The notes beneath the pieces are model-generated. The model was not told where the DNA came from, did no database searches, and worked only from the letters and a program-made list of their open reading frames with translations. Positions 3,712 to 62,586 of a DNA stretch of 64,000 nt are shown in pieces (position 1 is the stretch's first letter; the number at the start of each line of letters is the position of its first letter). The stretch is from IMG/VR virus record IMGVR_UViG_3300036768_001490, positions 96,001 to 160,000 of that record; one strand, 5' to 3'. Position numbers and translations under genes: made by a program. The stretch comes from a virus.

Positions 3712-4767
3712 TCAGGACAGCAACTGGCCGGCAGTCCCTGCCACTACCTCGTCGGACGTCCGGGGCCTGGCCTCGATGCCGAAGCCGGCCAGCAACACGC
3801 GCAGGTGCATGGCCTCCTGCTCGTCCAGCTCCCAGCGGCCGTGGTACTCCTCCTCGCTGTGGCCGTACATGAACTCCTCCCGGGGAGTGACGTTGTGCCC
3901 GTGGTAGGCTGCCACGGACAGGCCGTTAAAGGGGAACTGGCCATTGTCCACGGCCACGGTCCTGTCGCCGTAGTTCTCCAGCCAGAACGCCTGGGCATCG
4001 TTCACGTCCACGTCCGGGAAGCGCGCCTGGGAAGAGCGGGGCACCAGCATGGTGTTGGGGATGCCCTCTTCCTGGTGGTGGACGTAAGCCGTGGCCGTGT
4101 TAATGTCCACGCGCATCTGGTGCGTGAGCAGGGAGGCATGCCCAGGACGGCGAAAGCACATCTGGTAAGCCAGCTGGAGCGGATGGTAGTAGTCATCGTC
4201 GTCCCAGCAGGGACGGACCCAGTCGCCGTCCGCCAGCTCCAGGCCAATGTTGCGCATCTGGCCCAGGGTGAGCCGCCGCGGCAGGCTGACCCGGCGCTCC
4301 TTGATGGCGAAGTGGGGCACCGTGGTCACGTCCAGGTCGGTCGTGTTGACGATGACCAGCTGCTTGCGCGGGTAGACCTGCTCCACGAACTGCTGCACGG
4401 CCTTGCGGGCCATGCGGATGCGCTCCCGCAGGCCAAAGACCAGGATGCACGTCACCAGGGGCAAGTCCTCCCCCAGGCCGGAAGGAGGCACCACGGACTC
4501 CTTGCCCGCGTGCGGGTCCACCAGGGGGAACGGGAACGCGGACAGCGGTGCCGGCAGAAGGCTGGCCCCGCCGACCTGCCCACCTGCCTCTTCCTCCTTC
4601 TTTTCCTCCGGGCCTCGGTAGTCCGGGCTGGGAGGGACCGGCCTACCGGCCCGAATCGCCTCGACCTGCTCCCGCGTCAGATGAGGGAAGATCTCCCCCA
4701 GACTAGCCTTGGCCATCTCGCCGATGGGAATCCGCGCACTACCTCGGATCGGCATGCCGTTGCCCAT
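3712..4767 (-). CDS. GT2-like glycosyltransferase with Pro-rich N-terminal extension
   Basis: PLVTCIL...FVEQVYPRKQLVIVN; LGQMRNIGLELADGDWVRPCWDDDD; start moved to ATG 4767 after GGAGG. Confidence 0.78.
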   Translation of the reverse strand: MGNGMPIRGSARIPIGEMAKASLGEIFPHLTREQVEAIRAGRPVPPSPDYRGPEEKKEEEAGGQVGGASLLPAPLSAFPFPLVDPHAGKESVVPPSGLGEDLPLVTCILVFGLRERIRMARKAVQQFVEQVYPRKQLVIVNTTDLDVTTVPHFAIKERRVSLPRRLTLGQMRNIGLELADGDWVRPCWDDDDYYHPLQLAYQMCFRRPGHASLLTHQMRVDINTATAYVHHQEEGIPNTMLVPRSSQARFPDVDVNDAQAFWLENYGDRTVAVDNGQFPFNGLSVAAYHGHNVTPREEFMYGHSEEEYHGRWELDEQEAMHLRVLLAGFGIEARPRTSDEVVAGTAGQLLS

Positions 4768-5359
4768 GTGTCGGATGCTCCCTCCAGAAAGAAAGGAGAA
4801 GGAAAGGACAGCGATGGGGCCGATGCCCCGCCGGACGGAAGGGACCACGCGACCGGGAACGGCAGAAGGGAAACGGACCGCCTGGTAAGGGTAAGGGGCT
4901 AAAGGGAAAGTTACCGTCACCGGCCGCGTGGACCCGTCCGTCCTGCCACAGGACAGCGGCGGACGACAGCATAACATAACCGGTCTTCCGACAAAAGCAA
5001 CTCGATTTTTGCAGGCAATGGTCCCCGCGGCAGGGACGGACCGGAAGCAAAAGAACGGGGCCGGCCACGTAGACAGTCATGACCGGCCCCAGCGGAGGGG
5101 AAGGAACGAACAGGTTGACAGCACTCGTACCCTTTGAGGAGGAAGGAGAAAGTTCCCTTGTGGCGGCCGCGCCGAACCGCCTTAACCCGCCAAGTACCCG
5201 CCCGGACAGCGTGCAGGCCAGCTGCTCCTCCCACCTTCGCCCCTGGTGGCAGCTTCCTTGCCCGGGTAGCCAGCCACAGCACGGCTGCTCCACCCCTGCG
5301 CCAGGACCGCCACGGCCTCCGTCATCCCAAACGCCGTCCGTGCCGGGAGGAAAAAAGCA

Positions 5360-5534
5360 ACAGGATGCAACCCCCACCGGGCGGGACAAGGTACAGGGAC
5401 AGATACCGACGCTACCGTGGCCGGCCACGGCCAGCCGGCCCACGCTCGGCTTCTTGCCTGGTCCGAGCCGGACATGACAGTCGCCACGGCACCGTGGTCC
5501 TGGTCCCGCCTGGCGCACTGCAAGAGTTGCGCCA
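5360..5534 (-). ncRNA. candidate structured RNA directly downstream of a sigma70-type promoter
   Basis: GGCGCA/UGCGCC 5' hairpin; GGCGGGAC/GUCCCGCC long-range stem enclosing several hairpins; ends in a U-run; no convincing ORF. Confidence 0.3.
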
Positions 5535-5540
5535 AGAGGG

Positions 5541-5569
5541 AGTGTAGAAAACGGCACGCGCACTGTCAA
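5541..5569 (-). promoter_or_regulatory. sigma70-type promoter
   Basis: TTGACA-17 nt-TACACT on the minus strand. Confidence 0.7.
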
Positions 5570-5691
5570 TAGGCCAGCTTCGACTTTTCTGCCAGGACGG
5601 ACCTGGGCTCCACCACCCCCACACCCACCTATTCCAGCCAGCCCTACACCAGCCGAAAGCGACCACAAGAAGACATGCCTTGCTGATAGCT

Positions 5692-5742
5692 AAGAAAAAG
5701 AACGACGCCCCAGCCGATCCGCTTCCTGCGAATCGGCTGGGG
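5692..5742 (-). terminator. intrinsic terminator; terminator half of the cassette repeat (copy A)
   Basis: CCCCAGCCGAT/ATCGGCTGGGG hairpin followed by TTCTTTTTCTT; same hairpin recurs near 6507, 7385 and 8660. Confidence 0.75.
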
Positions 5743-5768
5743 AGAGAGGAGTAGTCACTACATGGTGA

Positions 5769-6224
5769 CTACTCCATCACAGCCCTAACCTCCTCCATGA
5801 CGATGGAGGATGCCTTCATCCAGCGGATGAAGGCATCAAAAGAACTCGCTCTTTTGATGCCTTCCCTGGCCAGCTCCAACCTCCATCCTGGCGGACCATG
5901 CGTACCGTCCACCTGGATGGTCTCCCCACCCAGGCGGAACATTATCTTCCCATCCCTCGATGGGAAGAATGCAGCCCCCCCACTACCCTCCGTCAGCATC
6001 CTTGCCATTTCCGAGACAATCCTGTTCCCTTCCTGGGTTCTCACCTTCTCCCAGCCCCATAGGGCCGGGTGGTGACACTTCCTTTCCCTCCCGGCCAAGT
6101 CGGCCAGGAGGATGACCGCTACGTGGTGGTCGACGCCTTGGCGTCGACCTCCACGCCCTTGGCGGGAGATAATATACTCCTCTGCCGCTTGGCGGAGGAG
6201 TCCAAAGGTATTGGTGGTGGACAT
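5769..6224 (-). CDS. hypothetical protein, paralog of 6566..7102
   Basis: AAGGAGG SD; shares HPAxWGW and HGPPGWRLxxAREG with the neighbouring gene. Confidence 0.75.
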   Translation of the reverse strand: MSTTNTFGLLRQAAEEYIISRQGRGGRRQGVDHHVAVILLADLAGRERKCHHPALWGWEKVRTQEGNRIVSEMARMLTEGSGGAAFFPSRDGKIMFRLGGETIQVDGTHGPPGWRLELAREGIKRASSFDAFIRWMKASSIVMEEVRAVME

Positions 6225-6236
6225 AAGAGTCCCCTC

Positions 6237-6572
6237 CTTTGCGGCATCTAGCCGCAGTTGTGTGGTAATAAAAATTGGACAGGAACGTCCTGTCCACCTT
6301 TTGTGACATCAATGGAGAAGATATTTAGGCAGGAGGCGGAGCACCCTGGTCAGAGCAGGGAGCATGGCGCAGGTAGCGCGCCTGAGCCTGATGGGAAGTA
6401 CACTGGCCTGATTGGTGGGAAACGTCTCCCGTGCTTGCTGACCCACGCCAGACGAAAGCGACCACAGGAAAACATGCCTGGCTGATAACTAAGAAAAAGA
6501 ACGACGCCCCAGCTGGTCCGCTTCCTGCGGATCGGCTGGGGAAGAGGAGTAAGCCGCTACGCGGCTTACTCC
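6237..6572 (-). repeat. ~330-bp intergenic cassette repeat, copy B (terminator + upstream block + palindrome + RBS hairpin)
   Basis: Near-identical to 7111-7458 and 8424-8696 by direct reading. Confidence 0.92.
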
Positions 6573-7102
6573 TTTCGGATCTCTTCCGTGATACTCCTCA
6601 CGACCGTACTCCAGATGGGTAGGTCATGAGGGATGGATATTACGTGAATCATTCTAAGTTGGGGTGGATACCCCGCTGATCGGAGTAGCCCTTCACGGGC
6701 TACTCTTAACCTCCATCCTGGAGGTCCGTGCTCGCGGCCGAGCAGTACCCTGCGTCCGTCATCCGTGACGAACACCAGCCTTTCTATCTCGGGGTGAAAT
6801 ACCCCGCCGTAAAACGGCGGCGATCCCCCTACGCTGCAGCGTCTTGCGACGGCCCGGATCGCCATCGACCATACCTCAATCCTTGCTTTGGGCTGTTGGC
6901 CGCTGCCCCAGCCCCAGAAAGCCGGGTGGCGTGCGCATCCCTCCTCTTCTCCGGCCATGTCAAGCATGGCGATGGCCGCAGAGTGTGCTGCAAGCTCCTC
7001 CGAGGAAACGTCTTTGCGATCCAGCCCGGCGAGGCGTAGGTAGTATTCCTCGGCCATGTTTGCCGCCATTATGAACCTGGTGGTTTCGTGATGGGACATC
7101 AT
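6566..7102 (-). CDS. hypothetical protein, paralog of 5769..6224
   Basis: AAGGAGG SD; shared motifs; stop codon sits inside the GGAGTAAGCCGC hairpin. Confidence 0.75.
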   Translation of the reverse strand: MMSHHETTRFIMAANMAEEYYLRLAGLDRKDVSSEELAAHSAAIAMLDMAGEEEGCARHPAFWGWGSGQQPKARIEVWSMAIRAVARRCSVGGSPPFYGGVFHPEIERLVFVTDDGRRVLLGREHGPPGWRLRVAREGLLRSAGYPPQLRMIHVISIPHDLPIWSTVVRSITEEIRKE

Positions 7103-7110
7103 GGTGTCCT

Positions 7111-7458
7111 CCTTTGCGGCTGTGCCGCAGTTGTGTGGTAATAAAAATTGGACAGGAACGTCCTGTCCGCGGCATTTATTGTGACATCAATGGAGAAGAT
7201 ATTTAGGCAGGATGTGAAGCACCCTGGTCAGGGCAGGGAGCATGGCGCAGGTAGCGCGCCTGAGCCTGATGGGAAGTACACTGGCCTGATTGGTGGGAAA
7301 CGTCTCTCGTGCTTGCTGACCCACACCAGCAGGAAGCTACCGCGAGAAAACACGACGGGCTGATAGCTAAGAAAAAGAACGACGCCCCAGCCGATCCGCT
7401 TCCTGCAGATCGGCTGGGGAGAGAGAGAGAGGAGTAGTCACCGAGTAGTGACTACTCC
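7111..7458 (-). repeat. intergenic cassette repeat, copy C
   Basis: Near-identical to copy B. Confidence 0.92.
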
Positions 7459-8366
7459 TCTTCTTTCTTGCCGCCAATCCTCCTCATGGCCTCGGCGACG
7501 GACTGTCGTACTCTTTCGTTTTGGTCCAGCCTATACCTGTTCAAGGCTGGCACGGCGTCCTTGCCGTCCGGGCCGAGCTTGCCGATGGCCTTGCACACAT
7601 GCTCTCGGATCATCCTGTTCTCGAGGGCTTTGACAAGAACCGGCAGCAAGGCCCTACCCTTGGAGGGGAAATCATCCACGATCTCCCCGAGGACCTCGAC
7701 CGCTGCTACCTGGGCGATATAGTGAAAGTAACCCGAACTAGAGTTCGGGTCGGATGAGATCAGCTTGACCATCATGGCGACCGTTTCGCCATCGTCCGGC
7801 GACACGGCGCCAAGGGCCTTGACCAGGCCCCTCACGTTTACGGTCTTGCTGTCCAGGCAGCGCTGAAGCGCTGCCCTCATAAGCGGGGCAAGCGGCCGAG
7901 CACCACGCTTCATCTCTTTGACTTCGTCGGCCAACGCCAGCAACTCTCTTGGCTGGCCGACTGCAAAGACGACCGCGTACTTGTACAGGTCTGGGCGAAC
8001 CTGCCGCAACGCTTTGGCGGCAGCCTGCACAACCTCCTTGTTGTTAGCCGACACCGCCATCGCCTCACACAGGGCATAGGCAGACTCCTCTTCCCTGGAC
8101 TTTGCCAATGCCTTGGCGGCGATCTTCTCGGCATCCGTACCTTCATGGCGCGCAATGGCTTCCTTGCACTTGGCCTTCGCCTGCTCTCCTCTCACGTCGC
8201 AGCCGCAGCCGCATTGCCAACCTAGCTTGGCCGCTGCACATGCCCCGATCACCATCCCGATCACCACTCCGAGCAGCAGGGCGGGAATGATGCCCTTGCT
8301 GCGGGAAGTTGCCGGCTGCAGCAGCACGACTACCTTGCACGAGTCGAGGACGAAGATGGTGTTCAT
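7452..8366 (-). CDS. HEAT/ARM-repeat protein with N-terminal transmembrane helix
   Basis: TM IIPALLLGVVIGMVIGACAAA; HEAT-like units (VREHVCKAIGKLGPDGKDAVPAL; VRQSVAEAMRRIG). Confidence 0.7.
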   Translation of the reverse strand: MNTIFVLDSCKVVVLLQPATSRSKGIIPALLLGVVIGMVIGACAAAKLGWQCGCGCDVRGEQAKAKCKEAIARHEGTDAEKIAAKALAKSREEESAYALCEAMAVSANNKEVVQAAAKALRQVRPDLYKYAVVFAVGQPRELLALADEVKEMKRGARPLAPLMRAALQRCLDSKTVNVRGLVKALGAVSPDDGETVAMMVKLISSDPNSSSGYFHYIAQVAAVEVLGEIVDDFPSKGRALLPVLVKALENRMIREHVCKAIGKLGPDGKDAVPALNRYRLDQNERVRQSVAEAMRRIGGKKEEE

Positions 8367-8423
8367 AACGAACTCCCCAAATGGGCGACGCCCAACTGAC
8401 GCACATGCGTCAGTCGTGGTTAG

Positions 8424-8696
8424 ATTGGACAGGAACGTCCTGTCCGCGGCATTTATTGTGGCACCAATGGAGAAGATATTTAGGCAGGAGGCGGAGCACC
8501 CTGGTCAGGGCAGGGAGCATGGCGCAGGTAGCGCGCCTGAACCTGATGGGAAGTACACTGGCCTGGTTGGTGGGAAACGTCTCTCGTGCTTGCTGACCCA
8601 TGCCAGCCGGAGGCTACCACGAGAAAACATGCCGGGCCGATAGCTAAGAAAAAGAACGACCCCAGCCGATCCGCTTCCTGCAGATCGGCTGGGGGG
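8424..8696 (-). repeat. intergenic cassette repeat, copy D
   Basis: Near-identical to copies B and C. Confidence 0.9.
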
Positions 8697-8709
8697 AATG
8701 CGGGCAGCC

Positions 8710-8856
8710 CTAAACGGGCCACCCGCAGGTGGGACACTCCTCCGTGAAACACGGAGGAGTGTCCTCACCGCAGTGAGGACACCTGTCGGCCCCCACTGCC
8801 TCCTCCTCATCGAGGAGGATGTCGTCGTCGTACTCGAAGTCGTAGTAGTACATCAT
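8710..8856 (-). CDS. 48-aa acidic zinc-ribbon peptide (absent from the ORF track)
   Basis: TAAGGAGG SD; MMYYYDFEYDDDILLDEEEAVGADRCPHCGEDTPPCFTEECPTCGWPV; occupies a cassette slot between repeats. Confidence 0.65.
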   Translation of the reverse strand: MMYYYDFEYDDDILLDEEEAVGADRCPHCGEDTPPCFTEECPTCGWPV

Positions 8857-8881
8857 TTCCCCTCCTTAAGGGATAACGTTT

Positions 8882-8957
8882 ATTGGACAGGTACGTCCTG
8901 TCCACCTTTTATGACACCAGTGGAGGGGATATTTAGGCGGGGAGGATGGAGCGCCTG
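8882..8957 (-). repeat. partial cassette repeat, copy E (palindrome + CTAAATAT block)
   Basis: GGACAGGTACGTCCTGTCC and ATATTTAGGC match copies B-D. Confidence 0.8.
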
Positions 8958-9043
8958 AATGTTGGCAGAGAAAGGAAAAACCCCGCCACCGTGACGCCAC
9001 GGCGGCGGGGCCGTCAGGGATGACCGGAGGTGGAGCGCCCCGG

Positions 9044-9847
9044 TCAGAACAGGGGAGTATTCCGAAGCGCCGGCAGCGCGTTAAGCTGAGGCGTCTGCTG
9101 GAAGTCCCAGGAGGGCAAATACTGCCGCAACTGGCGGAAAACGTCCTGATACGTGCCGCCCCGCGACTGCACCAGCCGGAAGGCACGCAGGGCGTAATAG
9201 GTCATGGCGCCGCAGAAGCGGCCGCCAATCCGCGCGTCCGCGCTGTACTCATGGTCCCGGCAGGCCGAGAAGTGAATGACGCCAGGCAGAGGCTGGTCCT
9301 GCCACCGGACCTGCTGGCCAAAGGCGCGCTCCATGCCATGCCACAACGGACTGTCGGGCGAAAGGAAGTGGGACGGCGGCAGGAAACGGACCCTCCGCTC
9401 CGACACGCTGCTGTCCGTGGCGAAGCGGAAGACCGAGCCCGAATGGCAGCAGTCACTGATCCAGAGCAGGCGCGCTCCCGGACGCAGCCGGCCAAACAGA
9501 TCGGCCAGTTCGTCGTCCAGGATCAGGTTGCGGCCATTGTCGCCCATGTCCGCCGGGCACAGCGCCTCGTCCCGGCCGTCCGGCTCGTCCCCGGAGAGGT
9601 CCGGCAGCCAGGTGCCGTGGCCAGAATACGTCACGGCGCTGCACGTGCCCGGCGACGTCTGGTCGATGACCTGCCGCAGGGCCGTCAGGATGTTACAGCG
9701 GCTGGCCTGGCGCTCCAGCATGGAGACGACGTCGAAGCCCTGGCCATGCAGGAAGCTGCCCCAGTCGTTGGCATCGTTGATGCAGCCGCGCAGCTCAAAC
9801 GGAGTGCCCGTGTAATTGATGCCGATGCACAGTGCCTTGCCCGACAT
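9044..9847 (-). CDS. metacaspase (peptidase C14 family)
   Basis: KALCIGINY...LRGCIND; catalytic His in YSGHG; catalytic Cys in ISDCCHSG. Confidence 0.9.
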   Translation of the reverse strand: MSGKALCIGINYTGTPFELRGCINDANDWGSFLHGQGFDVVSMLERQASRCNILTALRQVIDQTSPGTCSAVTYSGHGTWLPDLSGDEPDGRDEALCPADMGDNGRNLILDDELADLFGRLRPGARLLWISDCCHSGSVFRFATDSSVSERRVRFLPPSHFLSPDSPLWHGMERAFGQQVRWQDQPLPGVIHFSACRDHEYSADARIGGRFCGAMTYYALRAFRLVQSRGGTYQDVFRQLRQYLPSWDFQQTPQLNALPALRNTPLF

Positions 9848-9913
9848 GCCTGCCCTCCTCTCCCATTGCCTCCGGGCGACGGCCCAGCCCGCAGGAAACC
9901 TAAAAAACGGATT

Positions 9914-10219
9914 TTACCGGGCAGACGGCTGGACCGGGGCATCTCCCCCGCTTCTGGCCGCCGACGTCTCCCGATCCGTCGGCGGCCGGCTGGCCGGCGG
10001 CCAGCCACGGAACCAGACGCCCAGGTAGTAGCAGACCTGGGCCAGTACCGTCCCGGCCACGAACAGCAGCACAAGCCCGAGGACCAGGACGCTGAGGCTG
10101 AAGGCCATCTGGCTCAGCGCGGGCCACTTCCCGTAGGCTTCCAACCACCTGTCCATTGCGCCCCCAGACAACAGCCCGCCAGCGAAGGCGGCACGGAACG
10201 ACCTGACGTCCGGTGCCAA
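9914..10219 (-). CDS. small membrane protein
   Basis: Single long hydrophobic segment; follows gene order. Confidence 0.5.
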   Translation of the reverse strand: MAPDVRSFRAAFAGGLLSGGAMDRWLEAYGKWPALSQMAFSLSVLVLGLVLLFVAGTVLAQVCYYLGVWFRGWPPASRPPTDRETSAARSGGDAPVQPSAR

Positions 10220-10253
10220 GTATAGACGGCACGGCCCCTGACAGCAAGCCGGC

Positions 10254-10832
10254 CTAACGCGCCGCCAGCAGCTCCCGCGCCTGCCGCAGGGCCTCCTCGT
10301 AGCGCTCCCCGAAGTAGCACCGGTCCCCCGCGTGGGCCTCCTGGAGAAGTCCCTGGATAAAGCAGGGGGACACGCCCAGGTCGAGCAGGTCGGACATCAG
10401 CAGACGGGTCGCGCGGCGATAGCCCAGGTACGGGTAGCCCGAGTCACCGGCGGCATGGCAGTAGGAGCGGTAGCTGGACAGGGAGGCATAACGCTGGGCC
10501 AGCGGACAGTCCCCTTCCATCACATAGGTCCGGCGGCGCGTGCAGTACCACAGGCCGTCCAGGCAGGGGTAGGGCTCCAGCTCCTCCAGCCAGGCCGCGT
10601 GCAGGGCGTCCAGCAGCCGGCGGGAGCGGCGCGCGACCTCCGCGTCCGGGTGGGTCCGCCCCGCCAGCAGGACGGGCCGGACCTGCCAGCCCAGGCGCTC
10701 CAGCCGGACGGACGCCTCCTCGCGCCGGCCGAAGTCCGGGTCGCCCAGCTGGTGGACCAGGGACCAGGCGTCCGGGTCCAGGCACAGGGGCCCCGCCGCC
10801 CACAGGTAAAGGCCAAGGAACAGGGCGTCCAT
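10254..10832 (-). CDS. hypothetical protein with a HEAT-like motif
   Basis: LVHQLGDPDFGRREEASVRLERLG...HPDAEVARR. Confidence 0.6.
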   Translation of the reverse strand: MDALFLGLYLWAAGPLCLDPDAWSLVHQLGDPDFGRREEASVRLERLGWQVRPVLLAGRTHPDAEVARRSRRLLDALHAAWLEELEPYPCLDGLWYCTRRRTYVMEGDCPLAQRYASLSSYRSYCHAAGDSGYPYLGYRRATRLLMSDLLDLGVSPCFIQGLLQEAHAGDRCYFGERYEEALRQARELLAAR

Positions 10833-10870
10833 CGTTCTCCCTCCATCCTCTTCTCGGAAGCCAGTCAGAG

Positions 10871-11512
10871 CTAGTTATGCACGAACAGCGTGGCGCGGAC
10901 CTTCACGACCAGCCGGGGGCCAGCTACCCGGACCAGCCGGTCGATCCAGTCGCCGTCCGCGTTGAACGATGTCTTGTCGAAGGGCACCCGCCGGGCCAGC
11001 GCCGCCGCCACCAGCAGGCCGCCCAGGTCCAGGTGCCGGTAGCGCGGCTGAGTGACCAGCGGCTGCCACAGCCGATGGCTATGGACCATGTCGCAGTAGG
11101 CCAGCTGGGCCGGAGGCCGCGCCGCCGTGGCCTCGGCCAGCAGCCACTCCAGGAAGACCGGGGCGTACCAGTTGTCGTCGTTGGTCAGCAGCAGCCACGG
11201 ACACGTCCCCGCCAGCTCCTCGATGGCGCGCTGCCGCCAAGGGTGGCCGAACTGCTGCTTCCGGCTGGGCGTCTCCACCAGGGACAGGCGGGAGTCGCGG
11301 GCCGCTTCCTGCTCCCATTCCCGCCGGACGTCCGCGCTGGCCGGCCCGTCGTGGTAGGCCACCAGCCGCCAGTGGGGGTAGGTCTGAGCCTGGAAGGAGG
11401 CCAGCAGGGAACGCAGGGCGGCGCGGCGGCGCGGCTCGTCGTTGAGATAGGTGGCGACTCCGATGCCGACCGTGGGCGTGCCCCGGACCTGCTTGCTCCG
11501 CCAGTAGCGCAC
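10871..11512 (-). CDS. GT2 glycosyltransferase
   Basis: SLLASFQAQTYPHWRLVAYHDG; WLLLTNDDNWY; ADGDWI; TLFVHN. Confidence 0.85.
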   Translation of the reverse strand: MRYWRSKQVRGTPTVGIGVATYLNDEPRRRAALRSLLASFQAQTYPHWRLVAYHDGPASADVRREWEQEAARDSRLSLVETPSRKQQFGHPWRQRAIEELAGTCPWLLLTNDDNWYAPVFLEWLLAEATAARPPAQLAYCDMVHSHRLWQPLVTQPRYRHLDLGGLLVAAALARRVPFDKTSFNADGDWIDRLVRVAGPRLVVKVRATLFVHN

Positions 11513-49634: not shown

Positions 49635-49724
49635 GTCGTCCTCCCCGGAAACCAAAATCCGTTTTTTAGGTCCAGCAGCACCCCAACCGCTGGAACAGCA
49701 CGTTCCGGCACTTTCTTTTAGCTA

Positions 49725-50363
49725 TCAGCAGCTACGCTTCTCGCGCTGGCGGCGGACGTACTCCGCCAGCAGCAGGGCCTCGGCCCGACCGTGGTCCTTC
49801 TTGCGCATAAGGCCCGCGCTGGGAAAGAGGGACATGGCCTTGAGCCGGCTCGCCTCCTTGTCCTTGCCCAGCAGGCCCAGGCTGCGCTTCCACACGTTCG
49901 GCCGCACGTCCTCGACGGCGTAACCCTTGGCGTACAAAAACAGGGGCCACAGGCCCCAGGAGCGGTTCAGCACCGCCTCGGCATAGCGCCGACCGGGGCC
50001 CAGACTGCGCGGCACCTCCTCCAGCCCCACCGCCACGACCCTGGAGCGGGCCGGCTCCAGGGCCTGGAAAATGTCGCAAATGAGGCCGAAGTTGTACATG
50101 GTCGTCGAGCCATGGACCGTCCGCGTCTTGTGGCCCGTCTCCGCCTGCTCCTGGGCGCTGACGGCCCGGGAGCGCCGGACAGAAACCACGATGACAGGGA
50201 TGTCCACCACGGCGCAGCTGTTCCCGCACAGGAAGCCGATGGCCCCCTGGGCGCCCGGGTCGATGCCGATGTAGACGCCGGCGCCGTCCGTCCTGGCCTG
50301 CACCTCCTCCACGAAATGTCGGACCACTTCCTCCGGCCCCGCCGCTACCTTACCGTCCGTCAT
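49725..50363 (-). CDS. RuvC-like Holliday junction resolvase
   Basis: YIGIDPG; VGLEEV; WKRSLGL..KDKEASR; DHGRAEALLLA. Confidence 0.85.
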   Translation of the reverse strand: MTDGKVAAGPEEVVRHFVEEVQARTDGAGVYIGIDPGAQGAIGFLCGNSCAVVDIPVIVVSVRRSRAVSAQEQAETGHKTRTVHGSTTMYNFGLICDIFQALEPARSRVVAVGLEEVPRSLGPGRRYAEAVLNRSWGLWPLFLYAKGYAVEDVRPNVWKRSLGLLGKDKEASRLKAMSLFPSAGLMRKKDHGRAEALLLAEYVRRQREKRSC

Positions 50364-60277: not shown

Positions 60278-60856
60278 TCAGTCTTCCGCGCGCCAGCCCG
60301 CCTGGTAGATGCCCTCCACGACGTTCTGGAAGAGACGGACATAGAGACGGCTGCCCGTGCCAGGGTCGCTGTGAACCAGGGACAGCCCCCGGTAGGGGAC
60401 CGCGGCCAGCTCATCGTCCGTGACCAGCAGGCCATGCCGCACCCCCCGGCGCGGAAACACCAGCCCGACTGCCCGCGCCCCCAGCTCGTCAACCTCCAGG
60501 GACGCACGGAACCGCTCGTATGCCTGCACGAACGGCGCGTCCCGGAACCGGCGGAACAGCGCCGGCAGCATGGCCCTCGGGTCCAGATGCAACCTGACGC
60601 AAGGCAGCTCATCCGCCCCCAGAAGGATGGGAAAGGATGGATACAGGTCGTTGAAGGCGCGCAGGGTCAGCCACGGCCGGCCGCTGCGACGCTCCTCCTC
60701 CTGCCGCAGCTGCCGCACCGCCGCGGGCGTCAGGCGCAGGGCCCTGACCAGGAAGCGGACCCTTCCCTCCTCGTACTGGGCGGCACGAAACTCCTCCTCT
60801 CGACCCGACCGAGCGCCCAGCAGGCGGCGAAACGGATGGTTGGTATCTTTCTTCAT
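60278..60856 (-). CDS. hypothetical protein coupled to recA
   Basis: ATGA overlap with the recA stop. Confidence 0.6.
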   Translation of the reverse strand: MKKDTNHPFRRLLGARSGREEEFRAAQYEEGRVRFLVRALRLTPAAVRQLRQEEERRSGRPWLTLRAFNDLYPSFPILLGADELPCVRLHLDPRAMLPALFRRFRDAPFVQAYERFRASLEVDELGARAVGLVFPRRGVRHGLLVTDDELAAVPYRGLSLVHSDPGTGSRLYVRLFQNVVEGIYQAGWRAED

Positions 60857-62520
60857 GGCATGTCCCTGGCCAGCTGGCCCAGCTGCTCCAGATAGTCACC
60901 CGCCAGGACTGGACGGCGGTTGATGCGCAGGGCACAGCGCAGACGGTCCAGCAGCTCCCGGTCCTCGCGGATCAGGGCGCCGACGTCAGACCAGGGCATG
61001 GCGTCCTCCCGCTTCATGCCCAGCGACCTGGACCAGGCCAGGTTCTCCACCTCGGCCGTCTTCGGACATTCGAGGTGGAAGTCGATGTCCTTGAGGGCCT
61101 GACGGAAACGGGGGTTGGCCCGCTCCCCGTGCATGAGCGTGTACAGCAGGTGGACCGTGGACCAGTCCCAGTCCCAGGCGGTGCGCTGCTCCCACTCGCC
61201 ATCTTCGTTCTTCTCGTCCCACCACAGCAGGCGGGTCTGGATGCGACGGTGGGTCGGACCAAAGCTGTTCTTCTCGCAGCTGATCTCCACGGGAAAGCCC
61301 TCGAAGTTGGCGCACGTGATGACCTTCTTGTGCCCGCCAACCTTCTTCAGCTCCAACTCGAACGACTCCTGGAAATTGACCTGCTCGCCCCCCGCCTTGG
61401 AGCGCTCCACGTTGCCCGCATCGTCCGTCTTGATGCGCAGATGGTTGACCAGCACCAGGCTGAACGGCCACTCGTCCAGCTCCCCCGGAATGGTCCGCAT
61501 GTAGCGGGTAATCTTGAGAGCCTCGATGGGGAAGCCGCGAGAGGCAGCACCGTCCCCCGTCGTGCCTCGCTGACCCGTCCGCCGGTCCAGCTTGCCCAGG
61601 ATCGCCTCCTGCGTCTCCTCGCTCGACTTGCCCATGATCGAGTCCACGCCGTACAGCACCGGGATGGTACGCCCGGGGCCGGGAGACTCCTTGCTCCCCT
61701 CCATCCCGGCCTTGGTGCTCTGGATACTGAAGCTGAGCTTCCGCTGCCAGTCCTCGACCGACTTGCAGCGGGCCAACGGCATCATGTCGAAAAACTCCTT
61801 ACCCAGGATCGACCTGTACCAGTTCGGATTGAACTTCGACTCGGCCTCGTTCAGGTACATGCCACCCCCGGCCAGGAAGAACCAGCGGCCGAACTCTGCC
61901 AGCAGGCCCGACTTGCCGACGCCGTGGCGGGCCACCAGCTGGAACACCAGACCCAGCGGGAAGCCGTCCTGCGCCAGCACGAACTCCATCGGCAGACAGC
62001 CAGGATACCTGGCAGCAGCCTCGCCGTGGCCAGCGTACATGGGGATGCAGATGATGAGAGCGTCCGCCTCGCTGCCAACATAGACGCTCTTGTGGCCAAA
62101 CTTCTTCCGTGCCAGCTCTGCCTGACCACGGAAGAAGGCGTCCAGGGCCTTGCCCCGGTTCCGCCCCTTCCAGTCCGCCAGGCGCGCCTCGTCCTTCCGG
62201 CTGAGCTTGCGCTGGTCCAGGGAAATGACCCGCCGCCGGACAACGTTTCCGCCTCCAGCGCCCTTCCCCGAGGATCTGCCAAGGTCGTCAGACCCAGGAG
62301 GAGCAGCCCACTTGCCCAGGTCCAGAAGGTCGTCGCCCAGCTGCTGGCCGGCAGGAGCAGAAGGCAGTGCCTTCCCTGACTCCTCCGCGCCAACATCCTG
62401 GCCGTTCAGCACCTTCCCATCCGCGTCCGATCCCTTTCGGACCTTCCCCTTACTGCTGGCCCGCCGGCGTCCGCCCAAGACAGATGGTCTTCCGGTGGGG
62501 TCACGCTTCTTACCTGCCAT
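60853..62520 (-). CDS. recA: RecA-like recombinase with a long N-terminal extension
   Basis: GFPLGLVFQLVARHGVGKS (Walker A variant); YLNEAE; GVDS; LVNHLR; AGGEQVNFQES; KNSFGP. Confidence 0.8.
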   Translation of the reverse strand: MAGKKRDPTGRPSVLGGRRRASSKGKVRKGSDADGKVLNGQDVGAEESGKALPSAPAGQQLGDDLLDLGKWAAPPGSDDLGRSSGKGAGGGNVVRRRVISLDQRKLSRKDEARLADWKGRNRGKALDAFFRGQAELARKKFGHKSVYVGSEADALIICIPMYAGHGEAAARYPGCLPMEFVLAQDGFPLGLVFQLVARHGVGKSGLLAEFGRWFFLAGGGMYLNEAESKFNPNWYRSILGKEFFDMMPLARCKSVEDWQRKLSFSIQSTKAGMEGSKESPGPGRTIPVLYGVDSIMGKSSEETQEAILGKLDRRTGQRGTTGDGAASRGFPIEALKITRYMRTIPGELDEWPFSLVLVNHLRIKTDDAGNVERSKAGGEQVNFQESFELELKKVGGHKKVITCANFEGFPVEISCEKNSFGPTHRRIQTRLLWWDEKNEDGEWEQRTAWDWDWSTVHLLYTLMHGERANPRFRQALKDIDFHLECPKTAEVENLAWSRSLGMKREDAMPWSDVGALIREDRELLDRLRCALRINRRPVLAGDYLEQLGQLARDMP

Positions 62521-62586
62521 TGCCCTCACCCCCGTGGGGCCAAGCGGAGCAACAGTGTCGCTCCGCTCGGCCCAGGTCAAAAGATC

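Follow-up and report, generated by a model that had tools for sequence, protein, structure and literature searches.

A four-unit array of terminator-bounded accessory genes behind a caspase-like gene in an uncultured phage, with repeats that appear to carry a decayed gene end

The closest described parallels to the locus reported here come from two kinds of phage accessory gene. The promoter-stem-loop (PeSL) elements of T4-type phages are about 100 bp long, number about 50 per genome across several hyperplastic regions and carry a consensus sigma-70 promoter, and both insertions or deletions between close relatives and mini-circles have been demonstrated for them (Arbiol et al. 2010, PMC2839356); PeSL cassettes were also treated by Comeau et al. 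(2014, PMC4122927). Morons, as described for the lambdoid phages HK97 and HK022, are extra DNA of deviant GC content that lies between conserved genes and has its own terminator and promoter (PMC3594210). Here we describe an array of accessory genes in a stretch of 64,000 nucleotides (nt; hereafter the window, to which all positions refer unless stated otherwise), which corresponds to bases 96,001–160,000 of the 182,719-bp IMG/VR record IMGVR_UViG_3300036768_001490. The record represents an uncultured phage with a GC content of 65.7% and a CheckV completeness of 84%, and the stretch is present in two microbial-mat metagenome runs. Three full repeats of about 340 bp and two half copies bracket four minus-strand genes, and we consider it probable that the locus is a tandem array of four units that grew from the junction behind a caspase-like gene and now consists of terminator-bounded, co-regulated units of the moron type.

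Read along the minus strand, the locus comprises the caspase-like gene, the four array genes Zn48, HEAT304, p178 and p151, a gap of about 0.8 kb and a glycosyltransferase-like gene, in which homology to related phages begins near position 4767. The features of the array and of the adjoining caspase end are as follows, with SD denoting the Shine-Dalgarno sequence.

Positions 9044–9847, minus strand: caspase-like gene, a conserved flank gene (Peptidase_C14, PF00656, E 7e-25).
Positions 9026–9182, minus strand: caspase 3′ source segment, from the microhomology CTTCCGGCTGGTG (9182–9170) to the direct repeat GGCGCTCCACCTCC (9039–9026).
Positions 8979–9012, minus strand: the caspase gene's own intrinsic terminator, inside an 84-nt stretch between two direct repeats of ~14 nt.
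Positions 8882–8957, minus strand: R5, promoter-side half copy belonging to unit 1, with the CCTAAATATC box (8937–8928) and the palindrome (8885–8903), followed by the Zn48 leader and SD.
Positions 8710–8856, minus strand: Zn48, gene for a 48-aa acidic zinc-ribbon peptide (CxxC...CxxC; weak Zn_ribbon matches), with SD AAGGAGGGG.
Positions 8367–8712, minus strand: R4, full repeat, with stop hairpin, terminator (8694–8660) and U-run, variable stretch, putative caspase fossil (~8613–8487), CCTAAATATC box (8484–8475), palindrome (8427–8445) and a leader (8426–8367) that appears to have arrived with the HEAT gene.
Positions 7452–8366, minus strand: HEAT304, gene for a membrane-anchored HEAT-repeat protein (Pfam HEAT_2, E 2e-15; a transmembrane segment).
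Positions 7103–7465, minus strand: R3, full repeat, with stop hairpin, terminator (7419–7385), variable stretch, putative caspase fossil (7336–7210), box (7207–7198), palindrome (7150–7168) and a leader with hairpin and SD.
Positions 6566–7102, minus strand: p178, gene of an unnamed family of proteins of ~210 aa.
Positions 6225–6575, minus strand: R2, full repeat, with terminator (6541–6507), putative fossil (6458–6332), box (6329–6320), palindrome (6277–6295) and a leader with hairpin and SD.
Positions 5769–6224, minus strand: p151, a paralog of p178 (30–34% amino acid identity, 48.5% coding nucleotide identity).
Positions 5647–5775, minus strand: R1, terminator-side half copy at the end of the array, with stop hairpin, terminator (5742–5708), variable stretch and the microhomology CTTTCGGCTGGTG (5659–5647).

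The extents given to the repeats and half copies in a first-pass annotation of the window were correct to within a few bases, as was its account of one gene in each slot (4/4 slots: two paralogs, a HEAT membrane protein and a zinc-ribbon peptide). Its assignment of the conserved core of ~150 bp to a regulatory element did not survive comparison with the neighbouring gene. An nhmmer profile built from the three full repeats matched positions 9182–9024 (E 2.3e-4), which is the end of the caspase-like gene, directly upstream of and colinear with R5. Local alignment of 9182–9031 with R3 (7336–7215) gave a score of 62, against a mean of 23.5 (standard deviation 3.5, maximum 39) in 300 shuffles. Across 103 further genome segments the highest score was 36, and among caspase 3′ ends from 84 related loci it was 34. 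In one frame, the core keeps F-LV, Y(F/L)PS and ALPA, then a stop codon and PG, in the order in which these stand in the caspase C-terminus. This C-terminus is conserved through its final residue in relatives, and the caspase gene would therefore be the source and the cores its decayed copies. Judged by these alignments, the core is a decayed caspase 3′ end and not a purpose-built regulatory element.

The borders of the copies point to the same neighbour. With one mismatch, the 13-mer CTTCCGGCTGGTG ends R1 (5659–5647), and it marks the equivalent point in R2, R3 and R4. These shared 13-nt borders and the caspase-derived cores thus divide the locus into four units in tandem, measuring 569, 1277, 878 and 799 nt; unit 1 starts inside the real caspase gene. 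The true caspase junction holds 84 nt more than R2–R4, including the terminator, between GGCGCTCCACCTCC (9039–9026) and GGCGCTCCATCCTCC (8955–8941). The ends of the repeats fall on the duplication microhomology and on gene edges; terminal inverted repeats and target-site duplications like those of miniature inverted-repeat transposable elements are absent from these ends, and the inverted repeats that were found are the internal hairpins only.

In the history that we propose, a unit extends from the 13-nt microhomology CTTYCGGCTGGTG to its next copy. It would comprise, in order, a caspase 3′ end (real in unit 1, decayed in units 2–4), an upstream control module of CU-rich stretches around CCTAAATATC and a perfect palindrome of 19–21 bp, a leader particular to each gene that bears a hairpin and a strong SD, a small accessory gene, a stop hairpin, a 15-bp terminator with its U-run and a short variable tail. 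The first duplication joined a post-terminator tail to the interior of the caspase gene, at a junction that can be read directly, and probably did so by unequal exchange at the microhomology. The copied caspase end may then have decayed, losing its terminator between the two ~14-nt direct repeats, and the decayed unit would have been amplified. Coding content of the slots would have been replaced or have diverged, as can be seen for HEAT304 and as we suppose for the other genes. While the alignments establish the homology of core and caspase gene, the order of events in this duplication history is a reconstruction.

The repeats had been called near-identical, a description that fits the core (96–98% pairwise identity); the full copies R2, R3 and R4 as wholes are 85–86% identical. 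By part, identity is 74–85% in the variable stretch, 96–98% in the core, 88–93% in the box region and 91–100% in the palindrome, and the step from the variable stretch to the core has a Fisher p of 1e-5 to 1e-3. Different parts of the repeat group the copies differently. In the terminator and variable part, informative sites pair R1 with R2 and R3 with R4 (5 sites vs 1), in the linker a 5-nt indel and three substitutions pair R2 with R5 and R3 with R4, and in the leader R2 pairs with R3, with R4 and R5 each distinct. All four combinations of linker and leader alleles (4/4) are present across the palindrome, and at least one exchange must therefore have occurred there. The two paralogs show a comparable mosaic. 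The flanks of p151 and p178 are 84% (leaders), 93% (terminators) and 85% (tails) identical, with a range of 83–95%, their coding DNA is 48.5% identical, and identity changes abruptly at the start and stop codons. Simple duplication could not, on these sequences, have given such a pattern; flank conversion, replacement of coding DNA or very fast coding divergence would be needed. Taken together, the allele patterns indicate that homologous recombination and gene conversion kept the centre of the repeat alike and swapped the sides of the palindrome at least once.

The identity peak would look the same if the core were itself functional, as a leader or small RNA, an upstream activating region or a 41-aa micro-ORF (open reading frame) derived from the caspase C-terminus, which would start in the variable stretch and end at the fossil TGA. 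No other part of the repeat is as well conserved as the core (96–98%), which lies beside a far more variable stretch, the 41-aa frame is open in R2, R3 and R4 with a hand count of 6 synonymous to ~8 non-synonymous changes, and a predicted helix between the variable stretch and the first part of the core contains one compensatory pair. The excess of synonymous changes, however, lacks statistical significance, and the micro-ORF begins right behind a strong terminator without a promoter and lacks an SD, whereas all genes of the island have strong SDs. No frame of the core has a Pfam match and its small ORFs have no family match; a scan of Rfam 15 gave no match to the core, only three chance-level hits far below gathering scores. 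RNA folding of the core was no better than that of shuffles (z ~0 for the gene strand and -1.7 for its complement), and the whole repeat reached z-scores of -1.9 and -1.3 on its two strands. Moreover, R5 precedes its gene without a fossil core in that position. A function of the core in its own right is therefore quite improbable, and we continue to read it as a fossil of the caspase gene. On the plus strand, the variable stretch at 7290–7375 resembles the 3′ end of a minus-strand gene (49690–49760), with which it shares GCTGATAGCTAA and an A-rich tail; the score of 34 was matched by 5 of 500 shuffles, and this borderline likeness, either a second gene-end fossil or chance, was not used.

HEAT304 provides the clearest view of how a slot was filled. 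It is 79% identical at the nucleotide level, over 683 columns (window 8144–7473 vs 1907–2578), to a gene elsewhere in the genome (G000:C1:1898–2965, minus strand), ~100 kb away. The two proteins share 66% of their amino acids, with a dS (synonymous divergence) of 0.50 and a dN/dS (ratio of non-synonymous to synonymous divergence) of 0.49, and the distal paralog has an additional N-terminal zinc ribbon that HEAT304 lacks. Likeness extends to the 52 nt upstream of the HEAT304 start, which are homologous to the upstream region of the paralog (score 57; null maximum 30). This leader homology starts directly after the R4 palindrome, and at the other end the homology of the two genes stops ~7 codons before the stop codon, where the stop hairpin starts. 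The distal locus has no strong terminators and no repeat. By this comparison, HEAT304 with its leader is a copy of the gene ~100 kb away, set between a palindrome and a stop hairpin. The gene downstream of the distal paralog has a leader with ACCACACAA...AAAGGAGGGGAC, as in the R2 and R3 leaders (score 34; null maximum 26), two sequences that occur three and two times in the genome, respectively.

The distal paralog lies in a second low-GC island outside the window (G000:C1:1500–3500, L095; GC 58–60%, GC at third codon positions (GC3) 0.61–0.71). This island holds the full-length HEAT paralog (zinc ribbon, transmembrane segment and HEAT repeats), a 76-aa gene with a leader similar to the p151 and p178 leaders, and a fragment-like match of 161 aa to D12 adenine methyltransferase (PF02086, first 93 of 253 positions).

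The other slots hold Zn48, p178 and p151. The GC3 of Zn48 is 0.80. For p178, a profile search found ~15 distant homologs with common RHPAF, AREGLRR and W motifs, and both p151 and p178 lack ~40 N-terminal residues of these homologs. No close relative of p178 was found in a search of 5.8 billion proteins, and the family had no match in Pfam, PHROG or PADLOC and no loci in IMG/VR or the genome collection, with a cluster look-up returning no names. The AlphaFold model of p178 is confident (pLDDT 90, pTM 0.88; predicted local-distance and template-modelling scores) and had no match in the Protein Data Bank (Foldseek E > 0.09; best VIA Z 4.3). Atlas gave no usable function for the cassette proteins.

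The array occupies a slot that varies among related phages. The caspase and glycosyltransferase genes are syntenic in four relatives (L010, L011, L017 and L018), and the caspase-like protein of L010 matches the one here at 62% identity from end to end. The two genes are 4.1 kb apart here, compared with 0.5 kb in L011, 1.07 kb in both L017 and L018 and 6.4 kb in L010, and the 6.4-kb slot of L010 holds unrelated genes without repeats. The array is thus extra DNA relative to the syntenic genomes, as is characteristic of morons, and the slot varies, over 0.5–6.4 kb, among distant relatives. Homologs of HEAT304 and of p151/p178 were not found in two relatives that are 98–100% complete (G002 and G003). 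The array genes have a GC content of 59–60% and a GC3 of 64–80%, vs 66–72% and 84–92% for the flank genes; the array is a low-GC island inside a slot that is variable among relatives. A second variable slot (9848–10870) lies between the caspase gene and a GT-2-like gene (10871–11512), and holds 1 kb with one orphan gene, p192, here, 1.6–1.7 kb in L011, L017 and L018, and ~7 kb in L010. On the opposite side of the array, the ~880 nt from R1 to the conserved start of the glycosyltransferase gene (4770–5650) are without coding signal, since GC3 exceeds 0.8 in no frame, unlike in the genes here; this stretch could be a long leader, a non-coding RNA or decayed genes. It contains the genome's only consensus sigma-70-like site (TTGACA-17-TACACT, 5569–5541, minus strand).

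The repeat family itself has a narrow distribution. BLAST and profile searches placed it at one locus within the 182,719-bp record. TAAATAT occurs four times in the whole genome, always in the array, and the window contains four copies each of the palindrome GGACAGG-N5-CCTGTCC (0.07 expected), whose presence had been noted, and of the CCTAAATATC box (0.44 expected). Exact core patterns gave one chance 20-mer match in IMG/VR and then none, the palindrome pattern had no match in IMG/VR, the box-plus-palindrome pattern had none in metagenome contigs and the core pattern had none in species-representative genomes. Searches of 85 related loci with blastn and nhmmer returned repeat matches at chance level only, so that in the genome and the related loci the repeat is unique to the array locus.

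These distributions bear on a more dynamic interpretation, in which the repeats now serve as portable homology arms of a gene-capture platform, PeSL- or integron-like and without a dedicated site-specific recombinase. A UvsX-like protein or host RecA would cut out circles of one gene each, which could be inserted again or exchanged within or between co-infecting phages, so that units would be duplicated, lost or passed on by UvsX/RecA-type recombination. If this were true, a gene that recombined between palindrome and stop hairpin would be at once insulated and co-regulated, and HEAT304 would be the first documented capture. Homologous recombination works well on repeats of 340 bp with 85–98% identity, past exchanges are recorded in the mosaic flanks and in the four-gamete pattern at the palindrome, HEAT304 and its leader fit exactly between module edges, the slot varies among relatives, and the PCR-proven mini-circles of PeSL elements offer a precedent (PMC2839356). 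A recombinase is less evident than had been claimed. RecA was said to be encoded in the window; Pfam RecA and Rad51 are absent, and there is a weak UvsX-like match in a 575-aa ORF at 60853–62580 (minus strand; phrog_97, E 6.7e-5; RecA 12 bits, sub-threshold; no Pfam family at E 0.01), which may be a very divergent recombinase.

Against such a platform, the repeats are confined to one locus of one genome and absent from IMG/VR, from metagenome contigs (box-plus-palindrome pattern), from species-representative genomes and from the 85 related loci, the slots of relatives carry unrelated genes without such repeats, and the locus of the HEAT paralog has no matching modules, with short leader similarity only. 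No joint that skips, reorders, deletes or excises units was present in the contigs of the two metagenome runs, although contigs hide rare variants, and an origin by tandem duplication accounts for the layout without mobility. We therefore regard present-day shuffling as unlikely, and prefer an array built by duplication and then edited by recombination. Two apparent variants among the contigs were rejected: a 160-nt contig whose bases at 7213–7217 are of the R2/R4 type within R3 surroundings is most simply taken as a popped assembly bubble, and pieces covering 7975–8094 with a skip from 8144 to 8256 are best read as the distal HEAT paralog (85% likeness). Differences in piece depth disagree between the two runs and were not interpreted.

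The anatomy of the units is consistent from gene to gene. Every gene end, including that of the caspase gene, has a 10–15-bp stem across the stop codon, followed by a 15-bp GC-rich terminator stem with a U-run, and these folds reach z-scores of -5.0 to -8.5, which bears out, with values of -6.5 to -8.5, the stop-codon hairpins and intrinsic terminators noted on first inspection. The stop hairpins differ in sequence with the fold kept, and the inner stem of R2 is altered on both arms relative to R1 and R3. The R2 terminator has two stem mismatches, is weakened accordingly and was missed by the terminator scan. Strong terminators number five within the 3.5 kb of the array, vs none in the next 20 kb. 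Each terminator is followed by a 46-nt variable stretch, the almost invariant core of 104 nt and CU-rich stretches that flank CCTAAATATC; downstream of CCTAAATATC come the two-allele linker, the palindrome and a gene-specific leader with a hairpin and a strong SD. The palindrome is perfect over 19 bp, extended to 21 bp in R2 and R5, and its arms GGACAGG/CCTGTCC are invariant in all four copies, with R5 only 75% identical in the adjoining stretch. Between box and SD, folding gives z-scores of -3.2 to -3.9 in 4/4 copies, in which a CU-rich stretch pairs with the SD, and a hairpin abuts the SD in R2, R3 and R4, as had been reported. These features support the view that each gene lies in a unit of its own, with upstream module, leader hairpin, strong SD, stop hairpin and intrinsic terminator. 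In functional terms, the array would comprise four insulated, monocistronic and co-regulated genes, with each upstream module starting transcription. The invariant palindrome may act as a shared operator or a 5′ RNA hairpin, the CU-rich anti-SD could mask the SD, and the 3′ double hairpin would end transcription and protect the message.

Several points weigh against this reading. A promoter scan found no sigma-70-type promoter in any repeat, the sole AT-rich element being CCTAAATATC, and of the autonomous transcription units that had been proposed the terminators are clear and the promoter is a putative one, read from a conserved module. The promoter, operator and anti-SD functions named above are putative, drawn as they are from conservation and folding. 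The core may have stayed 96–98% identical under selection for an exapted function, which three copies cannot separate from conversion. Either HEAT copy may be the source of the other, both being without a homolog in the two complete relatives, and no relative with more than 62% caspase identity was found in IMG/VR or the metagenome collection. Finally, contigs of the Logan collection end inside the invariant core, so that independent contigs do not bridge the order of the units.

The missing promoter consensus is accommodated if the upstream module is not a promoter and the four genes are transcribed by read-through of leaky terminators from upstream. The AU-rich CCTAAATATC, followed by the palindrome hairpin, would in that case act as a site of RNA processing with a 5′ stabiliser, and the anti-SD would exert translational control. 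The strongly structured leaders with their paired SDs and the weakened R2 terminator fit this, as does a different motif upstream of the caspase gene. This motif, AAAATCCGTTTTTTAG, which often follows CC or CT, is found 57 nt ahead of the caspase ATG. The 183-kb genome has six copies in all, none of them in the cassette units, and the motif may be the phage's own promoter type. Its copies are at the following sites.

Window 9900–9914, minus strand: AAAATCCGTTTTTTAG site.
Window 49655–49672, plus strand: AAAATCCGTTTTTTAG site.
G000:C1:12517: AAAATCCGTTTTTTAG site.
G000:C1:54973: AAAATCCGTTTTTTAG site.
G000:C1:77804: AAAATCCGTTTTTTAG site.
G000:C1:161123: AAAATCCGTTTTTTAG site.

Read-through would nevertheless have to pass four successive 15-bp GC-rich terminators with U-runs, each after a second hairpin, which would leave little for the distal genes. 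Terminators this dense were found only in this island, and the homology of R5 starts ~30 nt upstream of the AT-rich box, a promoter-like span. We consider transcription by read-through a rather doubtful alternative to units that each start their own transcript. That the repeats are an assembly artefact is hardly credible. The break of short-read contigs in the invariant core and the order of units that is not independently bridged would allow it, but every copy has its own variants and unique flanks, and the indels and mosaic alleles between copies could not be created by an artefact. In addition, Logan contigs from the two runs, which belong to two studies, reproduced every junction between a gene and its own repeat flank with no mismatches.

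On this evidence, the locus preserves, in unusually legible form, the steps by which a phage may build up an array of accessory genes. One illegitimate exchange at a 13-nt microhomology would copy a gene end, start signals, a gene and a terminator; later, the copied end would decay and the control modules would be kept alike by recombination while the genes are replaced or diverge. It also carries a caution, since high conservation of an intergenic core need not mean regulation and can come from a gene fossil whose copies are kept alike by conversion. In practical terms, the units would be compact, natural, insulated expression cassettes. Their four orphan genes, which include a confidently folded family without a known structure, are candidates for host-takeover or anti-defence functions.

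An integron-like but recombinase-independent cassette system had been suggested for this locus. In its favour are the lack of an integrase, the traces of recombination, the one gene that was copied in and the variable slot; the repeats, however, would derive from tandem segmental duplication and not from mobile cassettes, and they occupy a single locus of a single genome. Like an integron, the array has ordered single-gene cassettes between repeated sites, but the record, at 84% completeness, has no tyrosine integrase (PF00589) and no attI/attC-type sites; its repeats consist of terminator, gene fossil and control module. An integron moreover uses one Pc promoter, whereas here each unit has its own terminator and start signals, in repeats that arose by duplication. 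Tandem segmental duplication with concerted evolution matches the locus in its microhomology borders, a partial copy of the neighbouring gene in each unit, an identity peak in the centre of the repeat and mosaic alleles; the difference is that the genes inside the units are not simple duplicates, at least one of them having been imported from another locus.

The likeness to morons lies in extra genes with a GC content unlike that of their neighbours, their own terminator and a putative promoter of their own, placed between conserved genes. Classical morons are single insertions without common flanking repeats, whereas here four units share one duplicated control set, and nothing here points to a temperate lifestyle or to expression from a prophage. 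With PeSL elements the repeats share a composite intergenic structure of a terminator stem-loop and the start signals of the next gene, which recurs in every unit, a position just ahead of small ORFan genes, within a plastic region flanked by conserved core genes, and the use of repeat homology as the site of exchange between otherwise unrelated genes. They differ in being ~340 bp long, in occurring as three full and two half copies at one locus, in lacking a sigma-70 consensus and in that more than one third of the repeat is a gene fossil from tandem duplication. The array thus joins morons and PeSL-type modular shuffling, usually separate ideas, in a high-GC, jumbo-type mat phage far from T4, and is a long, single-locus variant of the known moron and PeSL cassettes of phages, not a new cassette system.

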